Below, in pieces: positions 1,262 to 45,607 of a stretch of DNA of 64,000 nt. Position 1 is the first letter of the stretch. Every line of letters begins with the position of its first letter. The notes under the pieces were generated by a model that was not told where the DNA came from, ran no database searches, and was given only the letters and a program-made list of their open reading frames with translations. Origin of the DNA: a bacterium (GTDB lineage: Bacteria > Bacteroidota > Ignavibacteria > Kapaibacteriales > UBA7675); the NCBI GenBank assembly GCA_030430495.1, contig JAUIKM010000001.1, positions 202,447 through 266,446 of the forward strand. Direction: 5' to 3'. A program made the position numbers and the translations under genes.

Positions 1262-4054
1262 ATGAGCAAAACACGGAAAAAAAGCGACGTCGCCGATACC
1301 GGTAAAGACGCCGCGGTCGAAGATTCTCCCGCCGATCAAACCCCAACCAAACGAACCAGCAAACGCACCGCAGCCAAAAAGGCGCCGAGCGCGGCGTCCA
1401 AACGCGCCGCTGCAAAAGCGGACGACGGCGACGCAGTTGAAAAAGCTCCGCCCAAAAAGCGCAAAGCCGCTCCGCGCAAAAAAGCTGCCGCCAAAGCGCC
1501 AGCCAAGGCCAAGGCTGCTGCAACCGACTCCAAATCCCGCTCTGCAAGCGAGGTTAAGGACGCGCAGGATGAACTGTTCGGCGCTGGTGAATCGAGCGGT
1601 ACAAACAAAAAAGCCACGCCTGCACGGAAAAGCAGCACACGCCGCAAAGCTCCGGCCAAAAGCACTGCCGCCAAAGAAAAGCCGGCCGTAGCTGAAACCG
1701 CTGCCGACTTGGACGACAGCGCTGCGGAGACGCCGAAACCCAAAGCCAAACGCGCACCGCGCAAAGCCGCCCCGAAAGCGAAAGCCGCGCCCAAAAAAGC
1801 CGCGAGCCGAGCGAAAAAAGCTGAACCAGCCGACGTCGATACGGCCGATGCTGCCGAGAGCGCCGAGGAAACGCCCGCTAAAGCACCCGCCAAAAAACGT
1901 CCGGCCGCAAAGTCCAAAGCCGCGAGTACGTCCCGCAGCCGCAAGAGCAGCGCCAAAACCGCGCCGCAAGAGACGCCGGACGAAGCGCCCGAAGCCGCTG
2001 TGACCGAAAGCGATGAAGCCGAAAGCGCACCGAAACGCAGTACGCGTCGCAAAGCCGCGCCGAAAAAGTCTCCGGCTAAAACGACAAAAGACAAAGCGGT
2101 CGAAGAAACCGCGGCGATCGAAGCGGAACAGGCTGAAAGTGCGGGCGACGGCGAATCCGACGAACAGGCCGATCAAAGCCAAACCAGATCGCGTCGCTCA
2201 GGCCGTGGACGCCGTGGCGGCCGAGGTCGTCGTGGTGGAGAACGTTCCGAAGAGCGGGAAGCCGCCGGAGACGATCAACGCGACGAAGAGCAGGACCAGG
2301 ACAAAGAACAGCGCAAACCGCTGCGTCGCAAAGGCGAAGTAGATCCGAAAAAAGACGAGGCCGAGGGAGGCGAAGATTCAGCTCCCGAGCAAGCTCCCGC
2401 GCGCAAAAAATACGACCACGGTTTTGGCGAAATCGATCTGCGTCCGCAGTTGAATGAATCCGGCCCGGATGAGTCGGTTAACACGCTGGACGAGATCGAA
2501 TTGGACGAGCTGCCGCCGCGTATGCGCCAGGCCGTCGAAAACTTCGGCTGGGACAGTCTGATGCCGGTCCAGAGCCGCTCGATTCCCTACATGTTGGCGG
2601 GTCGCGACCTGATGGTGCAATCCAAAACGGGCAGCGGTAAAACGGCGGCATTCCTGCTGCCGATTCTCGAGCGAATCGATACCTCGCTGCCGCAGTGCCA
2701 GGCACTGGTGCTTGTGCCGACGCGCGAGCTGGCGCACCAGGTTGAAACGGAAGCACAGACCCTGGCGCAGGGACTTGGCGTTCGCATTGTCGCCGTCTTC
2801 GGCGGCGTCGGCTACGGCTCGCAGTTGCAGGCTTTCCGCGAAGGAGCGCAGCTCGTCATCGGAACGCCGGGACGCATTCTGGATCACATGCTGAAGCGCT
2901 CGCTGACGCTCGAAGCGCTGCAGATGCTGGTGCTGGACGAAGCCGATCACATGCTGTCGATGGGTTTTTATCCCGACATGAAACGCGTGCAGACCTTCCT
3001 GCCGCGCAGCAACTACAACGCCTACATGTTTTCGGCCACCTTTCCGCCGCGCGTGGTGCGCCTTTCCGACGAATTTCTTTGGAAGCCCGATTTTGTTAGT
3101 CTCAGCAAAGATCAGGTTCACGCCATCCAGACTGAGCACGTCATTTACGCCGTGCCGGACATGGACAAGGACCGCAGTTTTGTCAGGATTCTCGAAATCG
3201 AAAACCCGGCCAACGCCATTATTTTCTGCAACACCAAGGTCCAGGTCAACTACGTGGCCGTTGTGTTGCAGCGTTTTGGTTTCGACGCGGATGCGCTCAG
3301 TTCCGACCTGTCGCAGGGCGAACGCGAGCGTGTGCTGTCGCGCGTCCGTGCCGGCAATCTGCGCTTTCTGGTAGCCACGGATGTGGCGGCGCGCGGGATT
3401 GATATTCCCGAGCTCTCGCACGTATTTCAGTTCGACGTACCGGAAGATCCCGAGTCTTATATCCACCGTTCGGGCCGCACGGGCCGCGCCGGATCGACGG
3501 GACGCGCCATTACGCTGGCCGACTTCCAGGACCGCATCAAACTCGAGCGCATCGGCGCGCGTTATCAGATTGAATTTGTGGAGCGCCCGCTGCCGACGGA
3601 TGACGACATCGCCACGGTGGTGTCGCAGCGCGTCACGGTGCTGCTGGAATCGCGTTTCCGTTCGCGCGACAATGTGCAGCTCGAAAGTCTGGAGCGCTTC
3701 ACTAAACTGGCGGCAGCACTCGGCTCCGACGAAGACGGCTCGCGCCTGCTGGCAATGATGCTCGACGACTTCTATAAGTTTTCGCTGCATACGCCGCCGC
3801 CGCCACGTCGCGGCCGCGACGACCGACGTCAGGAGCCTCGCTCCGGCGGCGGACAACAGGACGCCCCGCGCGACCAGTACGCCGAGCAGGCGGAACAAGC
3901 CGAACAGGAGCATGACACCGACCGTGAGCGGGACCAGGACCACGACAATCGCGACGGCGGTGGAGATCGTCGCGACGGCGGCGGAGATGGTCAGGGCGGT
4001 CGCGGTCGAGGCGGACGTCGACGCCGCGGAGGCAGGAGACGGCGGAGGAACTAG
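1262..4054 (+). CDS. DEAD-box ATP-dependent RNA helicase (DeaD/RhlE-like) with ~370-aa N-terminal K/A/P-rich histone-H1-like low-complexity extension and C-terminal RGG/RD-rich tail
   Basis: Motifs in the translation: SKTGSGKTAAF (Walker A), PTRELA, VLDEADHM (DEAD), FSATFP (SAT), HRSGRTGRAG (motif VI). The N-terminus is made of AAKKAP/KRKAAPRKK repeats. The C-terminus is GGRGRGGRRRRGG. Confidence 0.9.
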   Translation: MSKTRKKSDVADTGKDAAVEDSPADQTPTKRTSKRTAAKKAPSAASKRAAAKADDGDAVEKAPPKKRKAAPRKKAAAKAPAKAKAAATDSKSRSASEVKDAQDELFGAGESSGTNKKATPARKSSTRRKAPAKSTAAKEKPAVAETAADLDDSAAETPKPKAKRAPRKAAPKAKAAPKKAASRAKKAEPADVDTADAAESAEETPAKAPAKKRPAAKSKAASTSRSRKSSAKTAPQETPDEAPEAAVTESDEAESAPKRSTRRKAAPKKSPAKTTKDKAVEETAAIEAEQAESAGDGESDEQADQSQTRSRRSGRGRRGGRGRRGGERSEEREAAGDDQRDEEQDQDKEQRKPLRRKGEVDPKKDEAEGGEDSAPEQAPARKKYDHGFGEIDLRPQLNESGPDESVNTLDEIELDELPPRMRQAVENFGWDSLMPVQSRSIPYMLAGRDLMVQSKTGSGKTAAFLLPILERIDTSLPQCQALVLVPTRELAHQVETEAQTLAQGLGVRIVAVFGGVGYGSQLQAFREGAQLVIGTPGRILDHMLKRSLTLEALQMLVLDEADHMLSMGFYPDMKRVQTFLPRSNYNAYMFSATFPPRVVRLSDEFLWKPDFVSLSKDQVHAIQTEHVIYAVPDMDKDRSFVRILEIENPANAIIFCNTKVQVNYVAVVLQRFGFDADALSSDLSQGERERVLSRVRAGNLRFLVATDVAARGIDIPELSHVFQFDVPEDPESYIHRSGRTGRAGSTGRAITLADFQDRIKLERIGARYQIEFVERPLPTDDDIATVVSQRVTVLLESRFRSRDNVQLESLERFTKLAAALGSDEDGSRLLAMMLDDFYKFSLHTPPPPRRGRDDRRQEPRSGGGQQDAPRDQYAEQAEQAEQEHDTDRERDQDHDNRDGGGDRRDGGGDGQGGRGRGGRRRRGGRRRRRN

Positions 4055-6384: not shown

Positions 6385-8082
6385 ATGCAGCAACACTCCG
6401 TTCGCGGAACCAATTCGTCTGAAAAGCCGACAAACAGGGAAGGCTCCCGCTCCTGGCGACACATGATCCGTCCCGGGAGACATGCGCGTTCCTGGTTTGT
6501 AAGCACGGCCCTGCTCGTGATTGCCGTCTCAATGCCGGCAATCTACGTGGCGCTGCACGTATTCGGCGGCTCCAACCCCGTCTGGGACCACCTGGCCGCC
6601 ACGGTGCTGACCGACTATATCGTCAACACGTTCATTCTGATGCTGGGCGTCGCCGTTCTGGTGACGCCCGTCGGCGTGCTCTGTGCCTGGCTGATTTCGG
6701 CTTACGATTTTCCGGGGCGCGCCTGGCTGGAATGGGCGCTGGTACTGCCGCTGGCCATGCCCGCCTACATCACCGGCTACGCCTGGTCGGGAATTTTTGA
6801 ATACGGCGGACCGGTTGACTCGCTGGCCGCATTCCTGGGTTCTGGTTCCTCGCTCGGGATCGACATTTTCTCCGTTTATTTCCTCGCTGCGCTGTTTGCA
6901 TTTGTCCTGTATCCCTACGTCTACCTTGTGGCGCGCAGCTCCTTTGCGCGTCAGTCGGCCGGATTGATCGAGGCGGCGCGTTTGACGGGCGCCGGCAATT
7001 GGGAAGTGTTTCGTCGCGTGGCGATGCCGCTGGCGCGTCCCGCGGTGGCCGGCGGTCTGGCGCTCTGCCTGATGGAGGTGCTGAACGACTACGGCGCGGT
7101 TAAATACTTCGGCGTTTCGACCTTCACGACCGGGATATTTCGCGCGTGGTTTGCCCTGGGCGACACGGGCGCCGCCGTTCGCCTTGCCGCCGTCCTGATG
7201 CTCTTTGTCTTTGTTTTGATCGTGCTGGAACGCCGCGGTCGCGCGCGAACAGCCGTCTCATCATCCGCCACAATGCGCCGTCAGACTCTGCGGGGAAAAA
7301 AGGCCCTTCTGGCCCTGATTTTCTGTTTAGTCCCGCTTTCGCTCGGATTTGTCTTTCCCGTAGTGCGACTGTTGACCTGGGCCTGGCGCACGGCGTCCGA
7401 TGTGTTGGACCTGCAGTTTGTCTATCTGGTGCTCAACAGTTTTGCACTTGCGCTCGGCAGCGCGGTTCTGTGCTGTGCCGCGGCGATCTTGGTGCTGTAT
7501 ACGGCGCGCCTGCAGCGCACGCGCCTGGCCGGTTTCCTGGCGCAGAGCGCCACACTCGGTTATTCGATTCCTGGAGCGGTCATTGCCGTCGGCGTCATGA
7601 CGCCCTTTGCGGCCATCGACCACGGAATCGACGGTCTTGTGCAGTCGCTCACCGGCAGCGGAACCGGACTTCTGTTGAGCGGCACGCTGATTGCGTTGTT
7701 GTATGCCTATTTATCGCGTTATCTTGCGGTGGCTTTTCAGCCTGTCGACGCCGGATTTGAGCGCACGGCCGCGTCGATGGACGAAGCCGCGCGTTCGCTT
7801 GGCGCTTCGCCCTTGCGTGCTTTGCTGCAGATCAACATTCCGATGGTGCGCACGGCCATCCTCAGCGCAATTATCCTGGTCTTTGTCGACGTGCTCAAGG
7901 AATTGCCTCTGACGCTGATTTTACGTCCGTTTAACTTTGAAACGCTGGCGACGCGCGCCTTTGAATTCGCCGGCAACGAACAACTGGCGGAGGCGGCCAA
8001 TCCGGCTCTGCTGATCGTAGCCGTCGGCGTCATTCCCATCGTTTATCTCAATCGTCTCATGAATGCAAAACAGGCGCGATGA
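6385..8082 (+). CDS. fbpB: Fe3+ ABC transporter permease, fused double-membrane-domain type (FbpB/FutB-like)
   Basis: 565-aa polytopic membrane protein with two repeated permease halves. Located between the fbpA-like and fbpC-like genes. The true start may be the internal ATG near 6463 (MIRPGRH...). Confidence 0.8.
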   Translation: MQQHSVRGTNSSEKPTNREGSRSWRHMIRPGRHARSWFVSTALLVIAVSMPAIYVALHVFGGSNPVWDHLAATVLTDYIVNTFILMLGVAVLVTPVGVLCAWLISAYDFPGRAWLEWALVLPLAMPAYITGYAWSGIFEYGGPVDSLAAFLGSGSSLGIDIFSVYFLAALFAFVLYPYVYLVARSSFARQSAGLIEAARLTGAGNWEVFRRVAMPLARPAVAGGLALCLMEVLNDYGAVKYFGVSTFTTGIFRAWFALGDTGAAVRLAAVLMLFVFVLIVLERRGRARTAVSSSATMRRQTLRGKKALLALIFCLVPLSLGFVFPVVRLLTWAWRTASDVLDLQFVYLVLNSFALALGSAVLCCAAAILVLYTARLQRTRLAGFLAQSATLGYSIPGAVIAVGVMTPFAAIDHGIDGLVQSLTGSGTGLLLSGTLIALLYAYLSRYLAVAFQPVDAGFERTAASMDEAARSLGASPLRALLQINIPMVRTAILSAIILVFVDVLKELPLTLILRPFNFETLATRAFEFAGNEQLAEAANPALLIVAVGVIPIVYLNRLMNAKQAR

Positions 8083-9152
8083 TCAATCCGCAGTTGAGTA
8101 TTGTCGAGTTTAATGGCGTTACCAAGCGCTACGTCACATCCGAAGCTCCGGCGGTGAACGAGGCCACGTTTTCCATTCAGCGCGCCTGCATCACGGCTCT
8201 GCTGGGCGGCAGCGGCAGCGGCAAAAGCACCGTCCTGCGCCTGCTGGCCGGTCTGGAAACGCCCGAAGCGGGATCGATAGTGCTGGCCGGAAATACCGTC
8301 AGCGACGGCCGGACTTTTGTCCCGCCCGAGAAGCGCAACATCGGCCTGGTATTTCAGGATTACGCGCTTTTTCCGCATCTGACGGTTAAACAAAACATTG
8401 AATTTGGTCTGGGTAAAAAGAGTAAACAGGATGGGCAACGCGCCCGCTCCATGCTTGAGCTTGTTGAACTCGATCAACTGGGACATCGTTATCCGCACGA
8501 GCTGTCCGGCGGGCAGAGACAGCGGGTGGCGATTGCACGTGCGCTGGCGCCGCAGCCGGATATCCTGTTGCTCGACGAGCCGTTTTCCAACCTGGACGAT
8601 GCGCTAAAAGCGCATGTGCGCCGCGATTTGACGCGTATTATTCGCACGGCCGAGATGACCGCCGTCTTTGTCACGCACGACGTCCGCGATGTCTTTGCCG
8701 CCGCAGATCGACTGATTGTTCTGGACGATGGACATGTGCGCCAGGCGGGCCGTCCCGACGAGGTGTACCAACAACCGGCCAATCCCGGCGTTGCCCGCAT
8801 TTTTGGCGAAACGACAATCATCAAAGCGCAGTCCCACGGCAACATGGCGCATACCGCCTTTGGCGAAATTGATCTCGGCGTGCCGGAAATCCCCTCCAAC
8901 ATGTTAATCTGTTTAAGACCGGGCGATCTGCAAATTGCCGCGCAAACCGAATCGGGTTTACAGGCCGTTGTTGAATGCACGACCTTTTTTGGCATGTACA
9001 ACGAGCTATTGCTGCGTTTAACACCCGCCGATTCAACGACGGAGCCCGTCCATCTCACTCTTCCACTGTCCTGCGACGAATCATATTCTCCCGGCGCCCG
9101 ACTGACGCTGACGCGGGCAGTGCGACGCATCCACTTCTGGCCGGCCGACTGA
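8079..9152 (+). CDS. fbpC: Fe3+ ABC transporter ATP-binding protein with C-terminal TOBE-like domain (FbpC-like)
   Basis: GGSGSGKST Walker A, LSGGQRQRVAIARAL signature, LLLDEPFSNLD Walker B. The start overlaps the permease stop (ATGA). Confidence 0.9.
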   Translation: MINPQLSIVEFNGVTKRYVTSEAPAVNEATFSIQRACITALLGGSGSGKSTVLRLLAGLETPEAGSIVLAGNTVSDGRTFVPPEKRNIGLVFQDYALFPHLTVKQNIEFGLGKKSKQDGQRARSMLELVELDQLGHRYPHELSGGQRQRVAIARALAPQPDILLLDEPFSNLDDALKAHVRRDLTRIIRTAEMTAVFVTHDVRDVFAAADRLIVLDDGHVRQAGRPDEVYQQPANPGVARIFGETTIIKAQSHGNMAHTAFGEIDLGVPEIPSNMLICLRPGDLQIAAQTESGLQAVVECTTFFGMYNELLLRLTPADSTTEPVHLTLPLSCDESYSPGARLTLTRAVRRIHFWPAD

Positions 9153-9722
9153 GACTGAATCGTTGTCGGGACAGGGACTGTAACATTCTCACAAAGGCAT
9201 CGCCGCTATTTCATGCGCGGCTCTTTTCTTTTTGTTCGTCACGCAGATAGAAGTGACAAGCATGACAAACAGGAGTACTTCTTGCAGATGATCTGTCAAC
9301 GCCAGGTCTGCATCAAACAAAACTGTCACCGGGTGCGGAGTCGGTTTTTGAGTATTATCATCAATTCGGATTCGATTATTTCCGAAACCACCTGAATGGT
9401 TTCAAGTCCCTGTTAACTTCGAACGCCACGCGGTCGGCGGATCAAAGTTTGAGACACCGTACTTTCAAAGACAAACCCACTGTCTGATCACATTGGACAC
9501 CGGCCTGCATTGCACATTCATTCGGTGATCTCGTTCAACTGCTCTCGGATTGCGATGCAAACATGGTTTGCCGATTGTCCGCGCCGGCGCCGGCTTCCGA
9601 GCGACAACTGAGCAGGCGCTGTATCCAAATCCGCAATAGAAATCATCGATTGAGAATCCTCTGGCGCCAATAGGTACTTCACCGCTCCGAACGCAAATCA
9701 ACGAAAATCCGACCGTTCAGAG

Positions 9723-9932
9723 GCGAAAACTGCCCGTTCGCGTTTTTCCGCTTTTGTGTTCGAAGTTTCATTGTCACTTTGCACGCGTGACGGCCGCACA
9801 GGTACAGGGACAAACGGAGTCAATTTTCACTTACCAGACTCGCAACAGGTAAAAGTTGCGAGGCGGCGGAGCGTGGCGGGCGGAAAAAAATGGCAGGTTG
9901 GCAGGAGGGGGTGGGGGCCCGGTTTCGGGCCT
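9723..9932. other. Conserved intergenic structured element, family A copy 1 (candidate sRNA): 5' gcgaaaactgcccgttcgcgtttttccgc ... 3' ggcaggagggggtgggggcccggtttcgggcc
   Basis: It shares ~35-nt 5' and ~40-nt 3' blocks with 45608-45842. There is an internal perfect hairpin ctcgcaac-aggtaaaa-gttgcgag. It is not adjacent to any gene start. Confidence 0.4.
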
Positions 9933-10369
9933 GAAGTCCATTTAAACCAAACTGTTTAAATCTTAATCGAAAGACAAGAGCGATGTTTCACCGATGACAG
10001 AAACAGAAGTATACTACCGACACAACTACAACTGCCATGCAAATTCAGACTCTTCGTTGTGTCTTCATCTTTCAGTGTTTCACAGATTCAAACAATATTC
10101 AACAACTGAATCATTGGAAGTTTGCTCGTTCTTCACAACGACAGTTCGTCGACTCCACAATTTTCAACGCGGATCAACCAACTGTTTTATGCTGACTTTT
10201 TGCTCAAACCGGCTGCGCACATTTTTACATTGTGACCGTTTGGAACACATTCCAGACCGTTGGACAACAAAATCAACTACGTTCAATTTTTTGCCGTGGG
10301 AAAGGCGCTGAAGTTTAACTATGCTTGTTATTGCGACGCGCAGGCATGCAACGCGTCGCTCCGCGGACA

Positions 10370-10495
10370 AGACTCTAAAAAATCTGCACTGAAGCAGGGT
10401 GGGAGGAGTGCGTCTGATAGCGGAGGAATTACACCGTGGCGGCGGCGGGGTGGCCCCCTGGATCAAGCCGGAAGTACGCCCAAACCTCAACACCG
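10370..10495. repeat. Dispersed conserved intergenic element, family B copy 1 (core atctgcactgaagcagggtgggaggagtgcgt...gtggcggcggcgggg...ccggaagtacgcccaaa)
   Basis: About 105 nt nearly identical to the copies at 31468-31640 and 52902-53070. Confidence 0.6.
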
Positions 10496-10610
10496 GCTCC
10501 CAGGCATCCCTCTAAACCATTGCCCCACAAGCACTTACAGCCTTCGACCAATCACATCTTTCCACCACATTCGCAGCTTCAACCTCAAAATAATCGCACC
10601 ACGCAACGGT

Positions 10611-11732
10611 TTACTGCTTCAACTTCTCAACCTGATACACCAGCAGCTCGTCCGACTTGCCGTGAACATTCACCGGCTCCCAGGCATGTGCTTCGACCTT
10701 GTCCCTGATCTTGTCGAACACGCGTTCGTGAACCAATATCGCGTTGTGATGTTTCTTCGTCAATGTCTCTATTCGTTTACCGGTGTTTACCGTATCGCCC
10801 GTAATCGAAAACTCGATCCGGTCCTCGGAGCCGAGATTTCCCGCGACCACTTCGCCCGAGTTAATACCGATGCCGATGGCAAAGGGACGCCCGAACGCTG
10901 CGCCATACGTCTGGTCCAGCTCCCCAATGCGCTCCAGCATTTCCAGCGCGCACAGTACAGCTTTTAATTCGTTGTTGTACGTCGGCATTAAAGCGCCGAA
11001 GGAGGCAAATACTTCGTCGCCGACGAACTGGTTGACCGTGCCGTCGTGGCGTTTAACACACTCGCTCATTAAACGGTAGTAGTGATTCAGGCAGGCGACG
11101 ACTTCCTTGGGCGAGGAGCGTTCACTGAAACGCGTGAAGCCGCGAATATCGCAGAACAGCACGGCGACGTCGCGCAGCTCGCCTTCAAAAATCGAATCTT
11201 CACTCGTTGACAGCGCTTTTTGTACAACTTCCTGCGGCACGTAGCGCTCAAACAGACGCAGCGTTTTTTCCTGCTCTTCGACTTTTTGCCGCAGATCGCG
11301 CACCAGCTGTTTATTGCGCTGCTGCAGGCCGTACAGGTGAAACGCATTTTCAATTGTCATGCGCAGTTCCGTTTCGTCCCAGGGTTTGGTGACGTAGCGA
11401 AATACGCGCCCGGTGTTGATGGCGCTGATGATGGCTTCAACATCGCTGAAACCCGTCAGAACCATGCGCACCGTGTCCGGATACGAGGGAATAATGTGTT
11501 CGAGAAATTGAACGCCGGTCATTTCCGGCATGCGCTGATCCGTGATGATCAACGCCACGTCCCGCGTCTTCAGGAGTTCAATCGCCTCGCGCGCGCTGTT
11601 GGCGGTAAGAATATTGTAGTCGCGCCGGAAAGCCGCCTTGAATGAAACGAGGTTCTGGTGTTCGTCATCGACGTAGAGAATGGCCGGGAGATCTCTGCGG
11701 GATTTGTTCATGTGCCTCTGTCCAGTGTACAT
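10611..11732 (-). CDS. Response-regulator receiver domain fused to class III nucleotidyl (adenylate/guanylate) cyclase domain
   Basis: REC: ILYVDDEHQNLVSF...ALIITDQRMPEMTG. Cyclase CHD: FCDIRGFTRFSE...FVGDEVFASFGA...GINSGEVVAGNLGSEDRIEFSITGDTVNTGKRIE. Possible start at MNKSRR (11711). Confidence 0.85.
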   Translation of the reverse strand: MYTGQRHMNKSRRDLPAILYVDDEHQNLVSFKAAFRRDYNILTANSAREAIELLKTRDVALIITDQRMPEMTGVQFLEHIIPSYPDTVRMVLTGFSDVEAIISAINTGRVFRYVTKPWDETELRMTIENAFHLYGLQQRNKQLVRDLRQKVEEQEKTLRLFERYVPQEVVQKALSTSEDSIFEGELRDVAVLFCDIRGFTRFSERSSPKEVVACLNHYYRLMSECVKRHDGTVNQFVGDEVFASFGALMPTYNNELKAVLCALEMLERIGELDQTYGAAFGRPFAIGIGINSGEVVAGNLGSEDRIEFSITGDTVNTGKRIETLTKKHHNAILVHERVFDKIRDKVEAHAWEPVNVHGKSDELLVYQVEKLKQ

Positions 11733-17628: not shown

Positions 17629-19032
17629 TCAGACCGGGAATTTCAAGGTGAAGGTCGAACCTTTGTCGAGTTCACTTTCGACGCTGACTGAGCCCTTGTA
17701 CATTTCCATGACGTGTTTCACGATGGCCAGGCCAAGACCGCTGCCGCCGAGTTCACGTGAACGCGCTTTGTCGACGCGGTAGAAACGTTCAAAAATACGG
17801 CCCAGATCTTCCTTCTTGATGCCGCGGCCGGTGTCGGCAACCTTGATGATGCACTTGCCGCCTTCGAGGAAAGAATGCACCGTAACGGAGCCTTTTTCCG
17901 TGTATTTAACAGCGTTGTCCATCAGGTTAATAATGGCTTTGTCGAGGTGGTAGGTGTCGACGAGCAGCCTGAAGTCCACGGGCAGTTTATTGTCGTAGTT
18001 AAGCGCCAGGCCTTTGTCGCGCGCCTTGCGGTTGAAGTCTTCCAGCAGGTTGCGAATGTAGTCTTCCAGGCGAATATAACGCTCGTCGCGGCTCTGCTGA
18101 TAGGATTCCAGACGCGAAAGGTCGAGCATGTCGTTGACGATTATTTCCAGGCGTTCAACGTTGGAAAGGGCGCGTTCCAGGAAACGGCGATTAACCTGTT
18201 TGTTTTCGAGCGCGCCGTCCAGCAGTGTTTCAACGTATCCCTTGATGGCGCTTACCGGCGTTTTTAACTCGTGTGAAGCGTTGGCGATAAAGTCGCGGCG
18301 CACTTCCTGCACGCGTTCGTATTGCTCGATGTTTGAGCGAAGTTTCTCGCCCATCGATTTAATCGAGCGGCCCAGTTCGCCGATTTCGTTGCGCTGATTG
18401 ATGTCCGGCGTCGTCGAGTAGTTTCCGTCGGCAATCCGTTTGGTCATGCCGATGAGATGTGAAATCGGCCGCGTTAAATAACGCGAGAGATTAAGAATGG
18501 AAAGCAGGGCAATGAGTGAGGAGACGGTGGCGGCGATTACGAGAATGAAGCGGATCTTGAGCACGTTGTCATCGATAAAATCGAGGTCGTGAGCGATCCG
18601 GATAATATAACCGCTGGGAGCGTCGTAGGCGGTGTAAAGCAGGTTCTGCTGTAGCGTCTGACTGTATCGACGCGAGTTGCCGAAGTGATCCGGGCTGTTG
18701 AGCGCCTGAACGACCTCGTCGCGTTCGATGTGATTTTCCAGCGGTGTTTCATTAACATCGACGCGCGTATCCAGGATCACATTCCCGACGCTGTCGATAA
18801 GCGTAACACGGGCCCCGACGTAACCGGCCAGTCGATCGACAACGGCGTAGGAGTTGCCGTTGTACTGCAGCAGCGACTCATCAATGAGCTGGCACTGCGT
18901 TTTCATGTTTTCGACCAACTGGTCCTGCATATTTTGCTGCAGCAGATTTTCCGCCGTCAGCAGCAGAACCAGTGAACAGACCAGATAGAGACCGATGAAG
19001 ATTATCGAAAGCTGGGAATGGACTTTGCGCAT
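17629..19032 (-). CDS. Sensor histidine kinase (PhoR/EnvZ-like; 2 TM, HAMP, HisKA, HATPase_c)
   Basis: H-box ASHELKTPVSAIKGY. ATPase GGSGLGLAIVKHVMEMYKGSVSVESELDKGSTFTLKFP. It is immediately downstream of the response regulator. Confidence 0.9.
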   Translation of the reverse strand: MRKVHSQLSIIFIGLYLVCSLVLLLTAENLLQQNMQDQLVENMKTQCQLIDESLLQYNGNSYAVVDRLAGYVGARVTLIDSVGNVILDTRVDVNETPLENHIERDEVVQALNSPDHFGNSRRYSQTLQQNLLYTAYDAPSGYIIRIAHDLDFIDDNVLKIRFILVIAATVSSLIALLSILNLSRYLTRPISHLIGMTKRIADGNYSTTPDINQRNEIGELGRSIKSMGEKLRSNIEQYERVQEVRRDFIANASHELKTPVSAIKGYVETLLDGALENKQVNRRFLERALSNVERLEIIVNDMLDLSRLESYQQSRDERYIRLEDYIRNLLEDFNRKARDKGLALNYDNKLPVDFRLLVDTYHLDKAIINLMDNAVKYTEKGSVTVHSFLEGGKCIIKVADTGRGIKKEDLGRIFERFYRVDKARSRELGGSGLGLAIVKHVMEMYKGSVSVESELDKGSTFTLKFPV

Positions 19033-19770
19033 TTAGTCAATCAACTGAACAAATTTGTAGCCGACGCCCTGAACGGTTTGAATGTGCCGGGCATAGTTGT
19101 TGAGTTTCTTGCGAATCTTCGTGACATGCACGTCGACCGTCCGTTCAATCTGATAGGCGTCTTCACCCCAGACATTATACAGGAGGTCCTTGCGGGAGAA
19201 GACAATACCCGGACGTTTCATCAGAAAATACAACAAATCGAACTCTTTGGGCAGAAGTTTGATCTCGACTTCGGCGACTTTGACGGTATAACTGAGGCGA
19301 TCTATCTCAACTTCGCCGATTTTGATGATTTCCTTGTCTGCGCCGCGGAACTTGTTAAGGCGCTCTTTCTGGCGGAAAATAGCGCGCACTTTGGCGGTGA
19401 TAACGCGCGGGCTGAATGGTTTGGTCAGGTAGTCATCCGCACCCAACTCAAGGCCGAGCACTTCGTCCACTTCTTCGGATTTGGCCGTCAGGAACACAAC
19501 GGATGCGTTCTTCAGCTTGGAATTCTGGCGCAGGGCCTTGCACACTTCGTAGCCGTCGAAGCCTGGCATCATGATGTCGAGCAGGATTACTTCGGGCATC
19601 ACGCGGTCCGCTATCGTCAATGCGTCCTTGCCGTTGTCCGCGGTGTAGACCTTGTATCCTTCGTTGCCGAGATTATACGAAAGGATCTCAAGAATATCGC
19701 GTTCGTCGTCGACGCAAAGAATGATTTTGTCTTTTTTCACGACTGCTGCACTCCTGCTGTATAAAAGCAT
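19033..19770 (-). CDS. OmpR/PhoB-family response regulator (REC + winged-helix)
   Basis: KIILCVDDERDILEILSYNL...ILLDIMMPGFDGYEVC. Winged helix LLPKEFDLLYFLMKRPGIVFSRKDLLYNVWG...VDVHVTKIRKKL. The ORF-track N-terminal 68 aa are probably not translated; the start is the ATG at 19770 or the GTG near 19738. Confidence 0.85.
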   Translation of the reverse strand: MLLYSRSAAVVKKDKIILCVDDERDILEILSYNLGNEGYKVYTADNGKDALTIADRVMPEVILLDIMMPGFDGYEVCKALRQNSKLKNASVVFLTAKSEEVDEVLGLELGADDYLTKPFSPRVITAKVRAIFRQKERLNKFRGADKEIIKIGEVEIDRLSYTVKVAEVEIKLLPKEFDLLYFLMKRPGIVFSRKDLLYNVWGEDAYQIERTVDVHVTKIRKKLNNYARHIQTVQGVGYKFVQLID

Positions 19771-20420
19771 GATTTGAGACGTTCGTGCCCGATTTGCCGT
19801 GCACAAACTGAATTTGTTGATCGCCTGTGCGCGAATTTCCGGCTTAAACAGATCCGTCTGACGGGCTGCTCGCTCGCTGAAATCCGTCGTTTTTGCTGTG
19901 ACCTGGAAGAATCTGTGGTGGCGGGGAATGTGCGGAAGTAACCAGGAGGGGTGTTTAAAGACGATGCGCTGCATTGCAGACGCAGTTCTGCCGGCGGACG
20001 CGTTGCCGCCGTCGGATTCGACGCATTGCGCCCATTCTCACCTGAATCGGCCTGCCGCGTCCGCACCTGCCGAAAGGAAGGCGCGAGTCGCTCTGACTTT
20101 TGTCGATCGGACAGGTCCAATCCAATGCGGGCTGACGTCATAGATTCCTTACCGCCGGACAATCATTGTCTTTCTGCTGCAAAAATATGTCCTTTATGTA
20201 AACCTCATGTTTGTCACATATTAATAAGGTGTAAAATGGCCGGAACGCAAAACGGCGGCGCAGATTGTTGCGTCGCCGTTTCAGCTTCGTTTCGCTGTGG
20301 AGCAAGGCCCGCCGTCGGGTGGAGATCGGCGCAAGCTGCGTCTGCACGGCTCATCCGGCACCGAAATTGCCGCGTCCGAATCACCGATCAGGCGCCCTTG
20401 GCCGGCCGGGCCGATTGACC

Positions 20421-31087: not shown

Positions 31088-31467
31088 CCGCGCGCGACTC
31101 ACTTAAACATATCTCTGTTTAACCCTGATGACTTTTTTGTTAACCATCGGGTGCGAAACGCCGATTCATTGCGGGAGAAGTCTGCGGCGCTCCGCGCCGC
31201 CTTGTCGGCGGGCTGGAAGCAGCCGAGTCTGTTTTCCAGCCGGGAAACCTGAATGCCGGTAGTCCAGTTAATCCACATAAAAACATTGAGATCCGGATTG
31301 GATCTATTGCACACCGAACTGCCGCGACGTGATTGTCCTGTGCACGTAATTCCACGAAATGATGTCCGTTTAACAGCGAAAATCAACCGTTCACACAGAT
31401 TTCCGGCTACGTTCAGTTTTTCAGCACTTGAATTGAAAGATGTTGCTTGTATACTGCAGGCGATAGA

Positions 31468-31640
31468 TCGCGCGCCGGCAGCGAGAATCCGCGACCGAAT
31501 GACTCAAAAAAATCTGCACTGATGCAGGGTGGGAGGAGTGCGTTTGAGCGTGGAGGTATCACCCGTGGCGGCGGCGGGGAGGTCCCCTGATCTAGCCGGA
31601 AGTACGCCCAAAAATGTTCAAGCTCCCGCTCAACACAAAC
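31468..31640. repeat. Dispersed conserved intergenic element, family B copy 2 (long form with shared 40-nt 5' extension cgcgcgccggcagcgagRatccgcgaccgaatgactc)
   Basis: Near-identical to 52902-53070 over ~165 nt and to 10370-10495 over ~105 nt. Confidence 0.6.
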
Positions 31641-31956: not shown

Positions 31957-32130
31957 GATTTGGGCTCGATGACTTTGGGCTCGACGGCTGGTTCCGGGAC
32001 TCGGCCGCTTCGCACCGGTCACGCACGCGGGACCTGGAGGTTTTGGGCTCGACGGCTGGTTCCGGGACTCGGCTGCTTCGCACCGGTCACGCACGCGGGA
32101 CCTGGAGGTTTTGGGCTCGACGGCTGCCCG
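31957..32130. repeat. Tandem direct repeat, 68-nt unit (ttgggctcgacggctggttccgggactcggcYgcttcgcaccggtcacgcacgcgggacctggaggtt) x ~2.4
   Basis: Two full units differ by a single C/T, plus a truncated third. It lies in the 1.2-kb non-coding region upstream of the 32276 kinase gene. Confidence 0.75.
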
Positions 32131-32275: not shown

Positions 32276-34573
32276 GTGAATAAACCACAAAAGAGACTTA
32301 TCGATCGGGCGGCATCCCTGTTTGAAGCCGATGAGCCTGCGCATCTGTGTATCGCCGCCGACGGAAGAGTATTGGAGGCGGACGACGCTGCGGTGGAAAT
32401 GCTGGGGCGGCCGCGGTCCGATCTGACCGGCCGCGTCTATCGCGATATTCTTGTCTTACTCGATCCGCAGAGCCGCAGCTACATCCAGCATATCGTCGAA
32501 GAGTGTCTGTGCGGTGCGCCCGACAACAGCTTGCGACGCGCGTGCATGCTGGCCCTCCAGAGCGGTCGCGAACTGGCTGTCCGCGTAGAGTTGCGCCTGC
32601 TGTGCGAATCCGGTGCGCGCGTGGCCTTTGTGCGACTGCGACGCATTGAGCGAATTGAAGCGGCAGCAGAGCCGCGGATTGCACGACAAATCAGTCATTA
32701 CAGCGCCTCGCTGGACCTCATGCCGGACAGCATCTGTGAACTGGATCGCAACGGAACGATCCTGTTTCACAATCATCCGCCGCTGGGGCTGCCGGCCATC
32801 GATTATCGCGGCCGCAATCTGTTTGACCTGCTCGAAGAAAATATGCGCCACATTCTGCGGCGCGCACTCGATCAGGCGCATGCCGGCGGCAAAGCCGCGC
32901 CGTTTGAAATCCGCAGCAAGGTGGACGGCCGCACGCGCTGGTGGAACGGCATTGTGATTCCGCACGAAGTCGACAGCGGCATCCGCCGGTTTGTCTGTCT
33001 GGGACGCGACGTCAGCGCCGCCCGCCAACTTCAGGAAGAACGCGAGCGGCACCTGCGCGCGCTGCAGGAACTGGACCGGCTGAGTCGCCGGATGGCGGCG
33101 ATGCAGGACGTGGACGATATCGACGACACCATTGCGGATGCGCTGCGCTCGATGCTTGACTGCGATCGCGTTTACCTGCTGGCGCTCGACCGCGACACAA
33201 TGCGCGAGGCGGACGTGGTGGCCGAATCGCGCGGCGAACAAATGGAAACGCTGACGCCGGACCGCCGACTACACCTGACTGACGCGGTGGCCGCGCGCTT
33301 CCGCCAGGTGTTTTCATCGGGTGTGACGCTGCGCTTTGATCCGGAAACCGGTCGGCAGATTCAGCACCCCGCACAGGAAGACGCGGCCGGCAGCGAGATG
33401 CCTACCTGCGTCACGGAACAGCCAAACGGCATCTGGTTTCTGGGCGCGCACAGTTCCGATGCGGCGCGTGTCTGGCGCACCTGGGAGTTCAGGCTGATTC
33501 GCAATGTGGCCGAGCGCCTTGATAATCATATTCAGCGCATGCTGCTGCTGCGCGCCCTGCGGCGCAACGAACACCGCTTTCGCGTGCTGGCGGAGATTGC
33601 GACCGATTTCTGTTTTCACGTGGTCATTGACAAAACCGGTGCGGAGAACATCCTGTGGCACACGGATGCGGTGCGGGAATTTACGGGGTTTTCAGCCGCC
33701 GAACTGGCCGCCAACGGATTGCTGAAAACGCTGTTCGGCGCGGAGAGCGAGCGCGTGGTGGAACATCTGCGCGTCGGACGTTTTCCGGAGCGTCGCGAGC
33801 GCACATGGCGGCCGGAACGCGCGCGCAAACGCCAGGTTGTCGACATGCTGCGGGCGCGCAGGCAGGACGACGGCTTTCACATTTTTGGCGCGATCCGCGA
33901 TGTCTCGGCGCACTATGCCATCCAGGAGCGGCTTCAGGCGGGAATGATTGAGCAGGAAGCAATGGTGCGGGAGATTCATCACCGCGTTAAAAACAACCTG
34001 CAAATTGTTTCCAGTTTGTTGAATATCCAGATGCGAACAATCAAAGAAGAGCATTATCGTTCGATCTTTCGCGAAAGCCGCTCCAGGATTCGCAGCATGG
34101 CTCTGATTCACGACAAACTGTACCATTCAGACAACCTTGCCCGCATCGACTTCAGCACCTATGTGCACAGCCTTGTGCGCGAACTGCGCCGCAGCTTCGG
34201 ATTGCGCGAAGGCAGCGTGGCGACCGACGTTGACATCGACCATCTTTACCTGGGTGTACAACAGGCCGTACCCTGCGGACTCGTAATCAACGAATTGGTC
34301 AACAATTCCCTGAAGTACGCGTTTCCGGAGGAGTGGCGCGGCGGCGGCCGCCAGGCGCGAATCAACATCGCCATGCGAGTCGATCCCGACGAAGCCGGCC
34401 GCACGTATCGCCTGACAATTTCCGATAACGGGGTGGGGCTGCCCGCAACGGCCACGACGACGCCCAGGCATACCGCCATCGGACTGCAATTGGTGAACAT
34501 GTTACTCAAGCAGATCGACGGCACGCTGCGTGTTGACAGACAACATGGCACATCCTGCGAGATTCGATTTTGA
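32276..34573 (+). CDS. PAS/GAF sensor histidine kinase of the HisKA_2 (HWE/'IHHRVKNNLQ') family
   Basis: Phosphoacceptor box EIHHRVKNNLQIVSSLLNIQ. ATPase: GLVINELVNNSLKYAF...ISDNGVGLP...GLQLVNMLLKQIDGTL. N-terminal PAS-like segments. Confidence 0.85.
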   Translation: MNKPQKRLIDRAASLFEADEPAHLCIAADGRVLEADDAAVEMLGRPRSDLTGRVYRDILVLLDPQSRSYIQHIVEECLCGAPDNSLRRACMLALQSGRELAVRVELRLLCESGARVAFVRLRRIERIEAAAEPRIARQISHYSASLDLMPDSICELDRNGTILFHNHPPLGLPAIDYRGRNLFDLLEENMRHILRRALDQAHAGGKAAPFEIRSKVDGRTRWWNGIVIPHEVDSGIRRFVCLGRDVSAARQLQEERERHLRALQELDRLSRRMAAMQDVDDIDDTIADALRSMLDCDRVYLLALDRDTMREADVVAESRGEQMETLTPDRRLHLTDAVAARFRQVFSSGVTLRFDPETGRQIQHPAQEDAAGSEMPTCVTEQPNGIWFLGAHSSDAARVWRTWEFRLIRNVAERLDNHIQRMLLLRALRRNEHRFRVLAEIATDFCFHVVIDKTGAENILWHTDAVREFTGFSAAELAANGLLKTLFGAESERVVEHLRVGRFPERRERTWRPERARKRQVVDMLRARRQDDGFHIFGAIRDVSAHYAIQERLQAGMIEQEAMVREIHHRVKNNLQIVSSLLNIQMRTIKEEHYRSIFRESRSRIRSMALIHDKLYHSDNLARIDFSTYVHSLVRELRRSFGLREGSVATDVDIDHLYLGVQQAVPCGLVINELVNNSLKYAFPEEWRGGGRQARINIAMRVDPDEAGRTYRLTISDNGVGLPATATTTPRHTAIGLQLVNMLLKQIDGTLRVDRQHGTSCEIRF

Positions 34574-38996: not shown

Positions 38997-39740
38997 TTTT
39001 TTATGAATTCTCTTGTTAGTCGCGCGGTGATCGGGACTGTGTCGCCGCGCTGTTTCGGGTAGTACCGCCGCAAACGCTTAACACACTGTTGGACCTCGTT
39101 CATCCGCCGCTGGTGACCGTTCACACCGATTGTACTTGACAACGAGCGCACAATTTTGTAAATCAGAAGCCGCAAAACACAGGTCTCCACCGCACGTGGC
39201 CCGCTTGAAATCCTGATGGCGAACGACGCAGCGCAACACCCGGCGTGACCTGCGCATCGGTGGACCTCTAACATACATCTCAGCCTGGAACCCACGTTAT
39301 GTTGCATACATCAAACCAACAAAGCCTTGACGGCGAATCGAACGTCCGCAGGATCATCAGTCCAAATTCCGACCAGAATCACATCATAACCTCTATACGC
39401 GGCCGCCGCAGTACCGGCTTTCTGTTGACAAGGCGCAATGCCGACGGTTTGCTGACTACGAACTATCACCTGCGTGACGAACAAGGAAATGTCAGGAAAG
39501 GGCGCGTGGATCAGCAGGCGTCGGACGTAACGTCACCGCCACGCCAATCCGGATCAGATCCCGCGGGGGGAATGAACAGGCAAGAATTTTCGTAACTTGA
39601 TCTCGGTACAGATTCTTTGCGATTGAGTCGTGGCGACAGTGCGGAGTAACAGTCGTATCCGCGTTGCCGTTGTGTGTTTTGATTCCCTGGCTCGATTTTT
39701 GAGCAGTTGCAGCTTTTCGACCGAAGCGGTACATACCTGA

Positions 39741-42595: not shown

Positions 42596-43705
42596 TCAGC
42601 CGCGGTCGCGTCCGTGACCGTGGCGGCGGACCGGACGATCGTCGCAGGGCCATTCACCGGTTTCCTGCCAGGAGTTCCAGATTTCAAGCTGCTCGTCGGT
42701 CAGGATGCTTTCGATGTCCGCCAGCAGAGCGTCGCGGGCGGCGGCGATTGCGTCGGCCAGTTCCTGGCGAGCGGCGGCCAGCGCTTCTTCATCAATTTCA
42801 GCGCCGCGCAGCTTGGCGAGCAGGTCGTGCAGTTCCGCTTTCAGCTCGCGCGCTTCGGCATTGTTGTCCGCCTGGGCGTCGCTGATAGCCTGGCGAATTT
42901 CGCGCAGCTGGGCGTTGAGTTCTTCGATGTCGGCGCCGGTACTTTGGCGCAGGGCGGCCAGCAGGTCGTGGTACTCTTCGCGTGTAATGTCGCCGTTGCG
43001 CAGTTGCATTTGCAGATCGCGCGCCTGTGACTGCATTTCGCGTTTCAGTTCGTTGATCTCAGTGATCAGTTCGGACATTTGTTCGCGGTACTCCGCGGCA
43101 ATCTCGTCGTTGGCCGCTTTGATTTCCTCCAGGCGCTCGCGGATTTCTTCCATGCGCGCCTGCTCTTCTTCGGTCAGTTCGGAGGCATCGGTTTTTAAGC
43201 CACGGACGGTTTCCTGATAAGAAGCGTATGCTTCGTGCACAGCTTCGCGGTACGTTGCCAGGAATCCGGCAATCGTTTCTTTCTGCGTGTCATCGATGTC
43301 GAGGCAGGGGAAGGGAATAGCCGCGAAGCGCATGGCCACATCGCCGCCTTTTCCGCGGTCATTGTCTTTTCCGCGGTCATTGCCTTTTCCGCGGTCATTG
43401 TCTTTTCCGCGTCCACGATCGTCGCCGTTGCCGTCGCGATCGCGCTCATCGCCGTCGTAGCCGATTCCGCCGCCGCCGAAGCCAAGCGGCAGGTCGTCGG
43501 CGACTTCACCGATCAGTTCATCGAGCGAGATGTCCTGGAGGTCGTTTTGTTGAACTACAATTCCAGAAGCTTCGTCGCCGCTCATCAGATTGGAGCTGTC
43601 GTCGCAGGCGGTCGTAAACATGACGCCGCCGCCCAGGAAAGCAATCAGCATCAGCCGAATGCCGGTCCGTGTTCCACGTTTCGTTCTCATAATATGCTGG
43701 TCCAT
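42596..43705 (-). CDS. Periplasmic LTXXQ-motif (Spy/CpxP-like) coiled-coil lipoprotein with internal (DNDRGK)n repeat
   Basis: Lipoprotein signal LIAFLGGGVMFTTAC. LTEEEQ and LTDEQ motifs in a long helical region. The repeat is encoded by an 18-nt tandem ttttccgcggtcattgYc x3.5 at ~43348-43420. Confidence 0.6.
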   Translation of the reverse strand: MDQHIMRTKRGTRTGIRLMLIAFLGGGVMFTTACDDSSNLMSGDEASGIVVQQNDLQDISLDELIGEVADDLPLGFGGGGIGYDGDERDRDGNGDDRGRGKDNDRGKGNDRGKDNDRGKGGDVAMRFAAIPFPCLDIDDTQKETIAGFLATYREAVHEAYASYQETVRGLKTDASELTEEEQARMEEIRERLEEIKAANDEIAAEYREQMSELITEINELKREMQSQARDLQMQLRNGDITREEYHDLLAALRQSTGADIEELNAQLREIRQAISDAQADNNAEARELKAELHDLLAKLRGAEIDEEALAAARQELADAIAAARDALLADIESILTDEQLEIWNSWQETGEWPCDDRPVRRHGHGRDRG

Positions 43706-43929: not shown

Positions 43930-44553
43930 TTGACCCCGGTTTTTTTTCGTGTAACATCGATATGCCGTCGTGCATTTCTGCTGGAGTCGATGATGAAGTC
44001 AATTGATTATCCGGCTCTGAGTGACGAAGACCTGTTTGAACTGGTCAAGCGTCACAACGACAAAGTCGCCTTCGATGTGCTCTATAAACGCTACGATCGC
44101 CGTCTGTTTTCCTACTGCCTGCGGGCGATGGAAGACCGGGACGAAGCCAAAGATGTGTACCAGCAGGCAATCATGAATATCTATGCCAAGCGGGACACCT
44201 TCAAAGGCGGTAGCTACGTAGCCTGGTTAATGACCATCGTTCGCAATCAGTGCCTGATGGCCAAGCGCGGCAAAAAGTACACGCGCGACGTCGATGAAAT
44301 GCAGAACGTCCTCGTGGCGAGCGACTCCGTCGGCGCGACCGACCACGGACTCAACGAAGCGGTACACAAAGCCGTTGACTCATTACCGGCGGATTTCAAA
44401 GAAGTTGTCGCGATGCGCTACTTCGATGAATTTTCTTACGAACAGATCGCCCAGACACTGGGAATTTCGATGTCTCTTGTCAAAGTGCGTCTGTTTCGAG
44501 CTAAAAAACTGTTGCTTGAAGCACTGTCTCCATATCGGGAGGAGCTTCTATGA
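43930..44553 (+). CDS. ECF-type sigma-70 factor (RpoE-like)
   Basis: Region 2 (YQQAIMNIYAKRDTFKGGSYVAWLMTIVRNQC). Region 4 HTH (VVAMRYFDEFSYEQIAQTLGISMSLVKVRLFRAKKLL). The probable true start is MMKSIDY near 43990. Confidence 0.85.
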   Translation: MTPVFFRVTSICRRAFLLESMMKSIDYPALSDEDLFELVKRHNDKVAFDVLYKRYDRRLFSYCLRAMEDRDEAKDVYQQAIMNIYAKRDTFKGGSYVAWLMTIVRNQCLMAKRGKKYTRDVDEMQNVLVASDSVGATDHGLNEAVHKAVDSLPADFKEVVAMRYFDEFSYEQIAQTLGISMSLVKVRLFRAKKLLLEALSPYREELL

Positions 44554-45479: not shown

Positions 45480-45607
45480 ATTCGGGCACACTTCTGCACA
45501 CCGTCGTATGCAAAATACGGATGCAAACGGGACTCAATTTTGGGTCCCGTTTTTTGTTTAAGCGCCGTGCGGGCGACCGCTTGTACACGTGAACGGCTAC
45601 GTTCATG

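Follow-up and report, generated by a model that had tools for sequence, protein, structure and literature searches.

The window analysed here, a 64,000 nucleotide (nt) stretch of contig JAUIKM010000001.1 from a bacterium of the Kapaibacteriales, contains two look-alike intergenic elements, termed A1 (9712-9961) and A2 (45598-45874), both on the forward strand. The genes on either side of each are convergent, and the spacers measure 1458 nt (A1) and 950 nt (A2). A1 is flanked by the genes for an ABC-transporter ATPase (8079-9152, +) and for a response-regulator/adenylate-cyclase protein (10611-11732, -); the neighbours of A2 are a putative anti-sigma gene (44550-45479, +), itself preceded by a gene for an extracytoplasmic function (ECF) sigma factor, and a gene encoding a 642 amino acid protein (46430-48358, -). 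The elements are probably a previously undescribed pair of small RNA (sRNA) genes, matching no described RNA family, and the direct repeats at their 5' ends resemble the binding sites of LytTR-domain response regulators.

A1 and A2 have in common a 45 nt 5' block (9714-9758 and 45600-45644; 89% identity; repeat family D7) and, approximately 190-215 nt downstream on the same strand, the 13-mer GGAGGGGGTGGGG, with a single exact occurrence per copy (9904-9916 and 45815-45827). After it, both copies have a GC hairpin, GGCCCG-GUUU-CGGGCC at 9916-9931 in A1 and GGCCC-AUUUAUU-GGGCC at 45826-45842 in A2. A 29-mer of the 5' block, allowing up to three mismatches, matches these two sites only, where shuffled sequences give an expectation of 0.00; for the 13-mer, 0.95 chance matches are expected at up to two mismatches, so alone it is weak evidence. 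The sequence between the blocks has diverged, with runs of A in both copies, and a profile of the 3' module (nhmmer) found no further copy in the window or in approximately 170 kb of related loci. An earlier note, made from the letters of the window alone, had described much of this anatomy, namely a paralogous pair in long intergenic regions with common 5' and 3' blocks, the latter G-rich and ending in a GGGCC hairpin, and this description is borne out. Two of its details stand only in part: the middle regions are indeed divergent and contain A-runs, but these do not occupy matching positions, as orthologue alignment places the A7 run of A1 opposite GGGAAAA in the A2 3' module rather than the A2 A8 run; and of the hairpins it saw at both ends the 3' GC hairpin is real, but the 5' end consists of direct repeats plus a -35 hexamer.

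The lineage is rare, and walking outwards from the flanking proteins recovered only two to three related genomes in all. The closer relative, GCA_964445695.1 (loci L003 and L011), has approximately 89% nucleotide identity to the window, and the more distant, from metagenome ERZ27271384 (loci L012 and L016), approximately 83%; a further four loci (L001, L002, L013 and L014) are Logan contigs of the window's own genome, and L015 stops short of the A2 locus. Both relatives, which are distinct species-level lineages, carry A2 at the syntenic position, which answers the earlier note's call for a check of conservation. A1, together with a neighbouring unit described below (B1), is found in the more distant relative, where a spacer of around 1.5 kb retains both. 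In the closer relative, 113 nt (L003 11100-11212; also in L017/ERR13847729) take the place of the 1356 nt (9257-10612) that in the window hold A1, an AT-rich spacer and B1. As A1 is kept in the more distant genome, its lack in the closer one represents a lineage-specific deletion, and A1 must be ancient, which rules out a recent insertion. A scan of 185,579 representative genomes with the 5' block pattern gave no matches, and five matches in JGI metagenomes were judged to be due to chance, with nothing alike beyond 21-24 nt; the scan missed the A2-bearing relative because the box spacer there differs by 3 nt.

From the predicted -10 hexamer onward, the 183 nt of A2 at 45660-45842 are 94% identical to the closer relative; the same comparison gives 87-95% for neighbouring genes and 51-71% for flanking intergenic DNA, a distribution that points to purifying selection on the A2 body. 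The A1 orthologue is 88-93% identical in the 3' module, and its body contains conserved islands. Conservation collapses after a second hairpin downstream of the module, to 62% in A2 and to no alignable sequence in A1. A1 and A2 are very probably selected non-coding elements.

Phased direct repeats and predicted promoters

LytTR sites, among them those of AgrA, AlgR and VirR, follow the consensus [TA][AC][CA]GTTN[AG][TG] and occur in pairs, 12-13 bp apart, that precede the -35 hexamer (PMC5600425), usually at a distance of 10 bp (range 4-11) (PMC6193735). Likewise, the sites bound by AlgR have the forms CCGTTCGTC and CCGTTCATC (PMC4787818). The 5' blocks of A1 and A2 contain 9 bp imperfect direct repeats, or boxes, of this kind (Table 1). 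In the A1 orthologue (L016) the distal box is kept as CCCGCTCAG and the proximal box reads ACCGTTTGC, with a third phased box, TCCGTTCAA, further upstream. The distal box of A2 is identical in L011 and ACCGTTCAG in L012, and the proximal boxes are ACCGTTGGC and AGCGTTGAC respectively. The orthologue boxes fit the consensus at 7-9 of nine positions, and a third phased box is present in both A promoters of the more distant relative.

The same arrangement recurs elsewhere in the window. Scanning for CGTT cores with a start-to-start distance of 21-22 nt identified boxes on the forward strand upstream of A1, A2 and three copies of a second non-coding repeat, family B (10371-10484, 31450-31613 and 52883-53046, +; 84-89% identical), as well as at 39095, in what is termed unit C. 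Their 9-mers include ACCGTTCAG, CCCGTTCGC, TACGTTCAT, CCCGTTGGC, TACGTTCAA and ACCGTTCAC, with inter-box spacers of 12 bp throughout family A, orthologues included, and of 12 or 13 bp for B and C. B1 and B2 each have three boxes in the scan; the third box of B3, GCCGCTCAG, is degenerate and was recognised by direct reading. A relaxed two-box pattern, written after the data had been seen, has nine matches in the window against 0.39 expected, seven of them at these units.

Downstream of the boxes, all six units have a -35-like hexamer 10-11 nt from the proximal box and a -10-like hexamer after a further 16-17 nt, all of these hexamers being predicted, not mapped. The proximal box is 10 bp from the -35 in A1, A2 and B1; in the other three units this gap is 11 bp. 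The distance from box to -10 is 33 nt in A1, A2, B1, B2 and B3 and 34 nt in C. The hexamers of B and C are good sigma-70 matches. Those of family A, where the boxes are followed by a 10 nt linker, TTKTGT, exactly 17 nt and CAnnTT, are weaker, yet the -10 keeps A at position 2 and T at position 6; it reads CAGATT in the A1 orthologue. Among the three A2 orthologues the spacer before the -10 has diverged in sequence with its length kept. Upstream, A2 is divided from the preceding operon by a canonical terminator at 45525-45552, with a T-run, and since only 37 nt, conserved at 51%, separate this from the boxes, there is no conserved promoter upstream of them.

Mean pairwise identity across the five available A sequences (A1 from the window and L016; A2 from the window, L011 and L012) follows this layout closely. 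It is 70-78% in the boxes and approximately 80% in the linker plus -35, 54-61% in the inter-box spacer, 33-49% in the -35/-10 spacer, whose length is always 17 nt, and 67-100% in the -10 hexamer (CATGTT in three cases, CACTTT and CAGATT). As judged from the alignment, this is the footprint of an activator-dependent promoter and not of an RNA helix. The 5' block is thus probably a promoter and operator rather than the end of an RNA, illustrating that the conserved '5' end' of paralogous intergenic elements can be a promoter cassette. The likeness of the repeats to known sites makes it more likely than not that the factor binding them is a LytTR regulator. A promoter for an ECF sigma factor, such as that encoded just upstream of A2, was also considered for the 5' block. 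ECF consensus promoters usually separate AAC from CGTT by 16-17 nt; on direct reading of the 5' block the distances are 5 or 21 nt, and this candidate was rejected.

Table 1. Positions in the window of boxes, predicted promoter hexamers and predicted RNA features in the six units
Unit	Feature	Coordinates	Strand	Details
A1	Distal box	9712-9720	+	ACCGTTCAG; 9/9 to LytTR consensus
A1	Proximal box	9733-9741	+	CCCGTTCGC; 7/9 to consensus; 12 nt after distal box
A1	Linker and predicted -35	9742-9757	+	10 nt T-run GTTTTTCCGC; TTTTGT at 9752-9757
A1	Predicted -10	9775-9780	+	TTTTGT-17-CACTTT; 17 nt after -35, 33 nt after proximal box
A1	Predicted non-coding RNA body	9787-9931	+	~145 nt; predicted start, +/- few nt
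A1	3' family module	9882-9931	+	GGAAAAAAAUGGCAGGUUGGCAGGAGGGGGUGGGGG, then GC hairpin 9916-9931
A1	Second hairpin	9940-9961	+	AUUUAAAC-CAAACU-GUUUAAAU; possible 3' end
A2	Distal box	45598-45606	+	TACGTTCAT; 9/9 to consensus
A2	Proximal box	45619-45627	+	CCCGTTGGC; 7/9 to consensus; 12 nt after distal box
A2	Linker and predicted -35	45628-45643	+	10 nt GTTTTTCCGC; TTGTGT at 45638-45643
A2	Predicted -10	45661-45666	+	TTGTGT-17-CATGTT; -10 hexamer unchanged among the three orthologues
A2	Predicted non-coding RNA body	45672-45842	+	~171 nt; predicted start
A2	5' hairpin	45672-45697	+	
A2	A8 run	45738-45745	+	
A2	G-rich module	45795-45827	+	
A2	GC hairpin	45826-45842	+	
A2	Second hairpin	45858-45874	+	UUGUUGC-CUAG-GCAACA, then UUCUCC; in both relatives; candidate 3' end
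B1	Whole unit	10235-10484	+	Shares spacer with A1; three phased boxes 10235-10286; TGGGAA-17-TATGCT, -10 at 10320-10325; body 10371-10484
B2	Whole unit	31365-31613	+	Three phased boxes 31365-31416; promoter 31428-31455, TTGAAT-16-TATACT; family B body
B3	Whole unit	52799-53046	+	Boxes 52799-52849; promoter 52861-52888, TTGCGG-16-TAAACT; family B body
C	Whole unit	39095-39260	+	Boxes CTCGTTCAT and ACCGTTCAC; promoter 39136-39164, TTGACA-17-TAAATC

Predicted RNAs of the six units

With transcription taken to start 6-7 nt after the predicted -10, most likely some 60 nt downstream of the 5' end that the earlier note gave to the element, the A1 and A2 RNAs would extend for approximately 145 nt and 171 nt to the GC hairpin, or 175 nt and 205 nt to the second hairpin. 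The second hairpins are candidate 3' ends because conservation drops just after them; that of A1 has the counterpart GUUUAAA-ACAC-UUUAAAC in its orthologue. Indications that the forward strand is the functional one include the orientation of the promoter and several predicted G-U pairs, which would be A-C mismatches on the other strand. All four RNAs tested are 39-41% G and 14-16% U (40% and 14% in the A1 body), a strand asymmetry that fits a function at the RNA level.

In the predicted fold of A1, the conserved 5' sequence GUGACGGCCGC pairs with GCGGCGGAGCG around a variable hairpin, and an internal hairpin is formed at 9839-9862. A2 folds differently and begins with a 10 bp hairpin, in which the pair U10-G17 becomes U-A in the relatives, and a long-range helix shows one change from G-C to U-A; the RNAalifold structure for three A2 sequences has 60 pairs, four of them with compensatory changes. 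The 3' module, consisting of GGGAAAAnUGGCAnGnnGGnAGGnGGGGGUGGGG(G) and a 5-6 bp GC hairpin in which both loop and stem length vary, is the best conserved transcribed part across the paralogues (67%). A stem is retained in every case, as GGCCCG/CGGGCC, GGCCC/GGGCC or GGGCCC/GGGCCC. In the more distant relative (L012, around 3655-3790), a 47 nt unit, GGGCCCGATTCCAGCTYCAGATTGTTGCCTRGGCAACAAT..., that reaches from the 3' arm of the GC hairpin of A2 through the spacer to the second hairpin is tandemly triplicated.

The earlier note had failed to match the pair to tmRNA, SRP, RNase P or 6S RNA, and the Rfam scan that it proposed leads to the same outcome. Rfam 15 gave no match at gathering thresholds in the whole window; at E <= 10 there was none for the A1 region, only chance matches outside the element for the A2 region and nothing relevant for the B2 and C regions, and ARAGORN found no tRNA or transfer-messenger RNA in the window. 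A small open reading frame (ORF) in the A elements was rejected because a 1 nt indel in a G-run interrupts it in L011 and an in-frame stop in L012, and because the substitutions are without codon phase. Two kinds of sponge were also considered. Mimicry of the Shine-Dalgarno sequence, or titration of its complement, is unlikely because GGAGG is not conserved, being GGCGG in L012 and L016. A CsrB/RsmZ-type sponge is likewise unlikely because GGA, with 5-8 occurrences per RNA, is not enriched over the composition-matched expectation (P = 0.27-0.70). A scan of the window for duplexes with the 3' module returned only self-antisense matches and a few unremarkable C-rich sites. The suggestion of a novel sRNA pair in the earlier note is thus upheld in that these are probable sRNA genes, conserved and without a conserved ORF.

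Family B is also G-rich (GGGTGGGAGGAG ... GGCGGCGGCGGGGAGG) and, much like family A, ends in a hairpin without a U-tract, GGGG-AGGU-CCCC. Orthologues are present in L011 (91% identity) and L016, the latter including that of B1. The Logan contigs L001 and L002 of the same genome (ERR3428547/8) end at window position 10410, inside a family B repeat; as short-read assemblies break in these repeats, they are expected to be under-represented in contig collections. In unit C, approximately 100 nt following the near-consensus promoter are 93-100% identical to a relative. It lies downstream of a gene for a 1461 amino acid hybrid histidine kinase and may encode a third sRNA or be a long 5' leader.

Proposed mechanism and competing explanations

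The best overall explanation, towards which the evidence tips by a modest amount, is that A1 and A2 are paralogous sRNA genes behind LytTR-type promoters. A LytTR-domain response regulator encoded outside the window would occupy the repeats in dimeric or oligomeric form and bring RNA polymerase to an activator-dependent, sigma-70-type promoter, from which each A gene would be transcribed on the forward strand. The same regulator would switch on A1, A2, B1-B3 and C together. The product of each A gene is, by a slender balance of probability, a trans-acting sRNA, with the shared 3' module perhaps serving as a functional platform, whether by seeding pairing with C/U-rich targets or by binding a protein, and the divergent bodies giving each paralogue its own structure.

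Regulatory RNAs are established outputs of this type of regulator. VirR belongs to the LytTR family, and P3 is the promoter from which RNAIII is made in Staphylococcus aureus. In Clostridium perfringens, three of the five direct VirR-box targets are sRNAs (PMC4877802), and in S. aureus AgrA boxes drive P3 (PMC4227749). The VirS/VirR system, with its targets vrr/VR-RNA, virT and virU, resembles the one described here in placing two imperfect direct repeats upstream of the promoter and in controlling several unrelated sRNA genes, five or six of the box-bearing units in the window likewise appearing non-coding. By contrast, the host here is Gram-negative, some units have three boxes, the RNAs are rich in G and have a 3' module in common, the regulator is only proposed, and A1 and A2 have no likeness in sequence or structure to VR-RNA, VirT or VirU, in keeping with the empty Rfam search. 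AgrA P3/RNAIII shares with the A units the site consensus, the 12-13 bp spacer and the position of the boxes just upstream of the -35 (PMC5600425), as well as a suboptimal core promoter needing an activator and a regulatory RNA as output (PMC5600425; PMC4227749), both of which are predictions for A1 and A2. It differs in the -35/-10 spacer, 18-20 nt at P2 and P3 and 17 nt in A1 and A2, and in the nature of the RNA: RNAIII is 514 nt long and encodes delta-haemolysin, whereas the A RNAs are approximately 150-200 nt without an ORF, and no agr-like locus is present in the window. As there is no homology in sequence or structure, both precedents are functional analogies only.

The sites themselves have parallels outside these systems. 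The 9-mers CCGTTCAGA, CCGTTCGCG and CCGTTGGCG resemble the AlgR sites of Pseudomonas aeruginosa (PMC4787818), and in the LytTR regulatory system operons of the HdrR/BrsR type the repeats lie 10 bp upstream of the -35 with a 12 bp spacer (PMC6193735). However, the targets in both cases are protein-coding and AlgR sites are often single or widely spaced, whereas here tandem phased sites precede non-coding units.

A number of observations weigh against this explanation. Neither the 32 ORFs scanned in the window nor the gene tables for L003, L005, L011, L012 and L016 yielded a LytTR-domain (PF04397) protein, which makes the regulator hypothetical. No A or B pair passes a strict two-box LytTR pattern at both boxes, the proximal A boxes departing from the consensus at two of nine positions, and the pattern that does recover the units is, as stated above, a relaxed and retrospective one. 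Six box-bearing units in 64 kb are unusually dense for the regulon of a specific response regulator, and at most one of them (C) is upstream of a same-strand protein gene, a TPR protein gene approximately 580 nt away. The -10 hexamers of family A are weak, beginning with C instead of T. On the RNA side, covariation draws on just three A2 and two A1 sequences, and minimum free energies on the forward strand do not differ from those of shuffled sequences (z = -0.3 and -0.8), with z = -2.7 for the minus strand of A1; such scores are uninformative for sequences this rich in G. A terminator scan found no canonical intrinsic terminator on the forward strand downstream of A1 or A2, the sequences after the GC hairpins, UGAAGUCC in A1 and AAACUUUC in A2, containing no U-tract and the tail of the second hairpin being only weakly U-rich; protein genes of the same genome do have canonical terminators. 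Finally, a complementarity between the 5' block and the 3' module, considered below, is found in all five A sequences and is compatible with a transcript that includes the 5' block.

Several of these points would be accommodated if the promoter and sRNA architecture were as proposed and the boxes were bound instead by a response regulator of another family, by a lineage-specific factor or by whatever recognises a general promoter element of the clade. This is possible, if unlikely. In its favour are the lack of a LytTR gene among the window ORFs scanned, the density of units and the off-consensus proximal boxes, together with an OmpR-type two-component pair encoded at 17629-19974; however, OmpR/PhoB sites normally repeat every 10-11 bp, not every 21-22, and the CGTT core, the 9-mer pattern, the 12-13 bp spacer and the 10-11 bp distance to the -35 match LytTR sites specifically.

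Rather improbable is a role for the promoters in driving long antisense or read-through transcripts into the convergent genes, or the expression of a short peptide, for instance the precursor of a pheromone or a bacteriocin. Peptide genes are common members of LytTR regulons (PMC6193735), both units point at the 3' end of a convergent gene, and neither hairpin is followed by a U-tract terminator. Yet the orthologues lack a conserved ORF, conservation falls away directly behind the second hairpin, and a long conserved inverted repeat (46163-46285) stands between A2 and the gene it faces.

The earlier note had favoured a third possibility, in which the whole block of approximately 220 nt, including the 5' sequence, is one sRNA, 6S-like or similar, with the 5' GUUUUUCC closing on an A-rich 3' segment. 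The 9 bp complement on which it was based, GUUUUUCCGC with GCGGAAAAA, exists in A1 only and is lost in the A1 orthologue and in all A2 sequences: in that register four of the nine pairs are broken in four of the five sequences, and the 71% of cells that pair equal the figure for shuffles. Sliding the 3' partner by +2 brings UUUUCC opposite the conserved GGGAAAA, with 91% of cells pairing across the five sequences. Both partners are invariant, low-complexity runs, and the stem therefore shows no covariation; with its 5' partner upstream of the predicted -35, this pairing is regarded as a coincidence. The 5' arm falls between the direct-repeat boxes and the conserved -35/-10 pair, with a footprint typical of elements acting at the DNA level, the same boxes precede the strong sigma-70 hexamers of B and C at an equal offset, and the 37 poorly conserved nucleotides up to the terminator offer no other promoter. 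6S RNA is of a similar size range and also intergenic, but A1 and A2 have no match to it or to another Rfam family even at E <= 10, no conserved closing stem and no predicted central bubble. A closing stem like that of 6S is consequently not borne out, and the whole-block transcript is very improbable.

That the elements are remnants or ends of mobile DNA (insertion sequence (IS) terminal regions, a miniature inverted-repeat transposable element or an integrated cassette), the possibility that the earlier note had named as fatal to its proposal, is scarcely credible: the two copies have ends that are conserved around a middle that has diverged, and one relative has 113 nt in place of the 1356 nt with A1 and B1, but A2 is syntenic in three genomes at 83-89% nucleotide identity and A1 is at its locus in the more distant relative, the ends are not inverted repeats of each other (the 29-mer and 13-mer have no opposite-strand match, and no pair flanking an A element is among the listed inverted repeats), neither a flanking target-site duplication nor a transposase gene nearby was seen, the A1 stretch has no match in a plasmid collection and the A2 stretch none in a phage collection, and the genome and metagenome scans with the 5' block found no related copies.

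If A1 and A2 are indeed sRNA genes under LytTR control, they would represent a new sRNA family and, with B and C, make up a small RNA regulon whose regulatory logic is readable, in an uncultured lineage that has been little sampled. LytTR regulators are probably numerous among Bacteroidota-like bacteria, and a literature search returned no described target of one in this group; the signature of boxes plus sRNA would then allow LytTR regulons to be predicted from sequence alone, and the relay from response regulator to sRNA known in Staphylococcus and Clostridium would be extended to Gram-negative environmental bacteria. A broader and decidedly tentative idea is that this uncultured lineage, akin to the Fibrobacteres-Chlorobi-Bacteroidetes (FCB) group, routes the output of LytTR-type signalling almost entirely through RNA, with at least three unrelated G-rich sRNA families (two copies of A, three of B, and C) behind one promoter cassette in 64 kb. 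The unusual 3' design common to A and B, in which a short all-GC hairpin with no U-tract comes after a long single-stranded G-run, could under that idea serve an RNA-binding factor as a new signal for recognition or termination, in a clade lacking Hfq-type paradigms.

Other repeats and genes of the window

The inverted repeat at 46163-46285 is imperfect, with 29 nt arms that are 83% complementary around a 65 nt loop, and is partly conserved in both relatives; it could be a bidirectional terminator. Adjacent to it, just after the stop of the 642 amino acid gene, is a tandem array at 46304-46420 that is absent from both relatives, in which a 22 nt period at 46304-46389 (GAAGTGTCAGGAGACAAGAAGT / GAAATGTCAGGCGTCGGAAATC) gives way to two short repeats similar to GGCAAACGTCAGAA; a related stretch of 42 nt occurs at 39485-39526. 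Upstream of a PAS/HisKA_2 histidine kinase gene (32276-34573), a 68 nt unit is duplicated in tandem at 31974-32109 with 99% identity. Other repeats are associated with ORFs: a periodic 60 nt repeat with approximately 12 copies at 1-816, apparently within an ORF, and an 18 nt tandem repeat at 43346-43411 inside the ORF at 42596-43705.

The window also encodes TonB-dependent receptors and two proteins with C-terminal sorting domains of the type IX secretion system (48382-49695 and 58800-62891). Homologues of the cyclase that carry names are nearly all from Bacteroidota. The lineage itself has very sparse sampling, the next relative of the cyclase after that at 97% having 68% amino acid identity. 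Given these homologues, the sorting domains and the TonB-dependent receptors, the label 'uncultured Hyphomicrobiales bacterium' attached to GCA_964445695.1 looks wrong.

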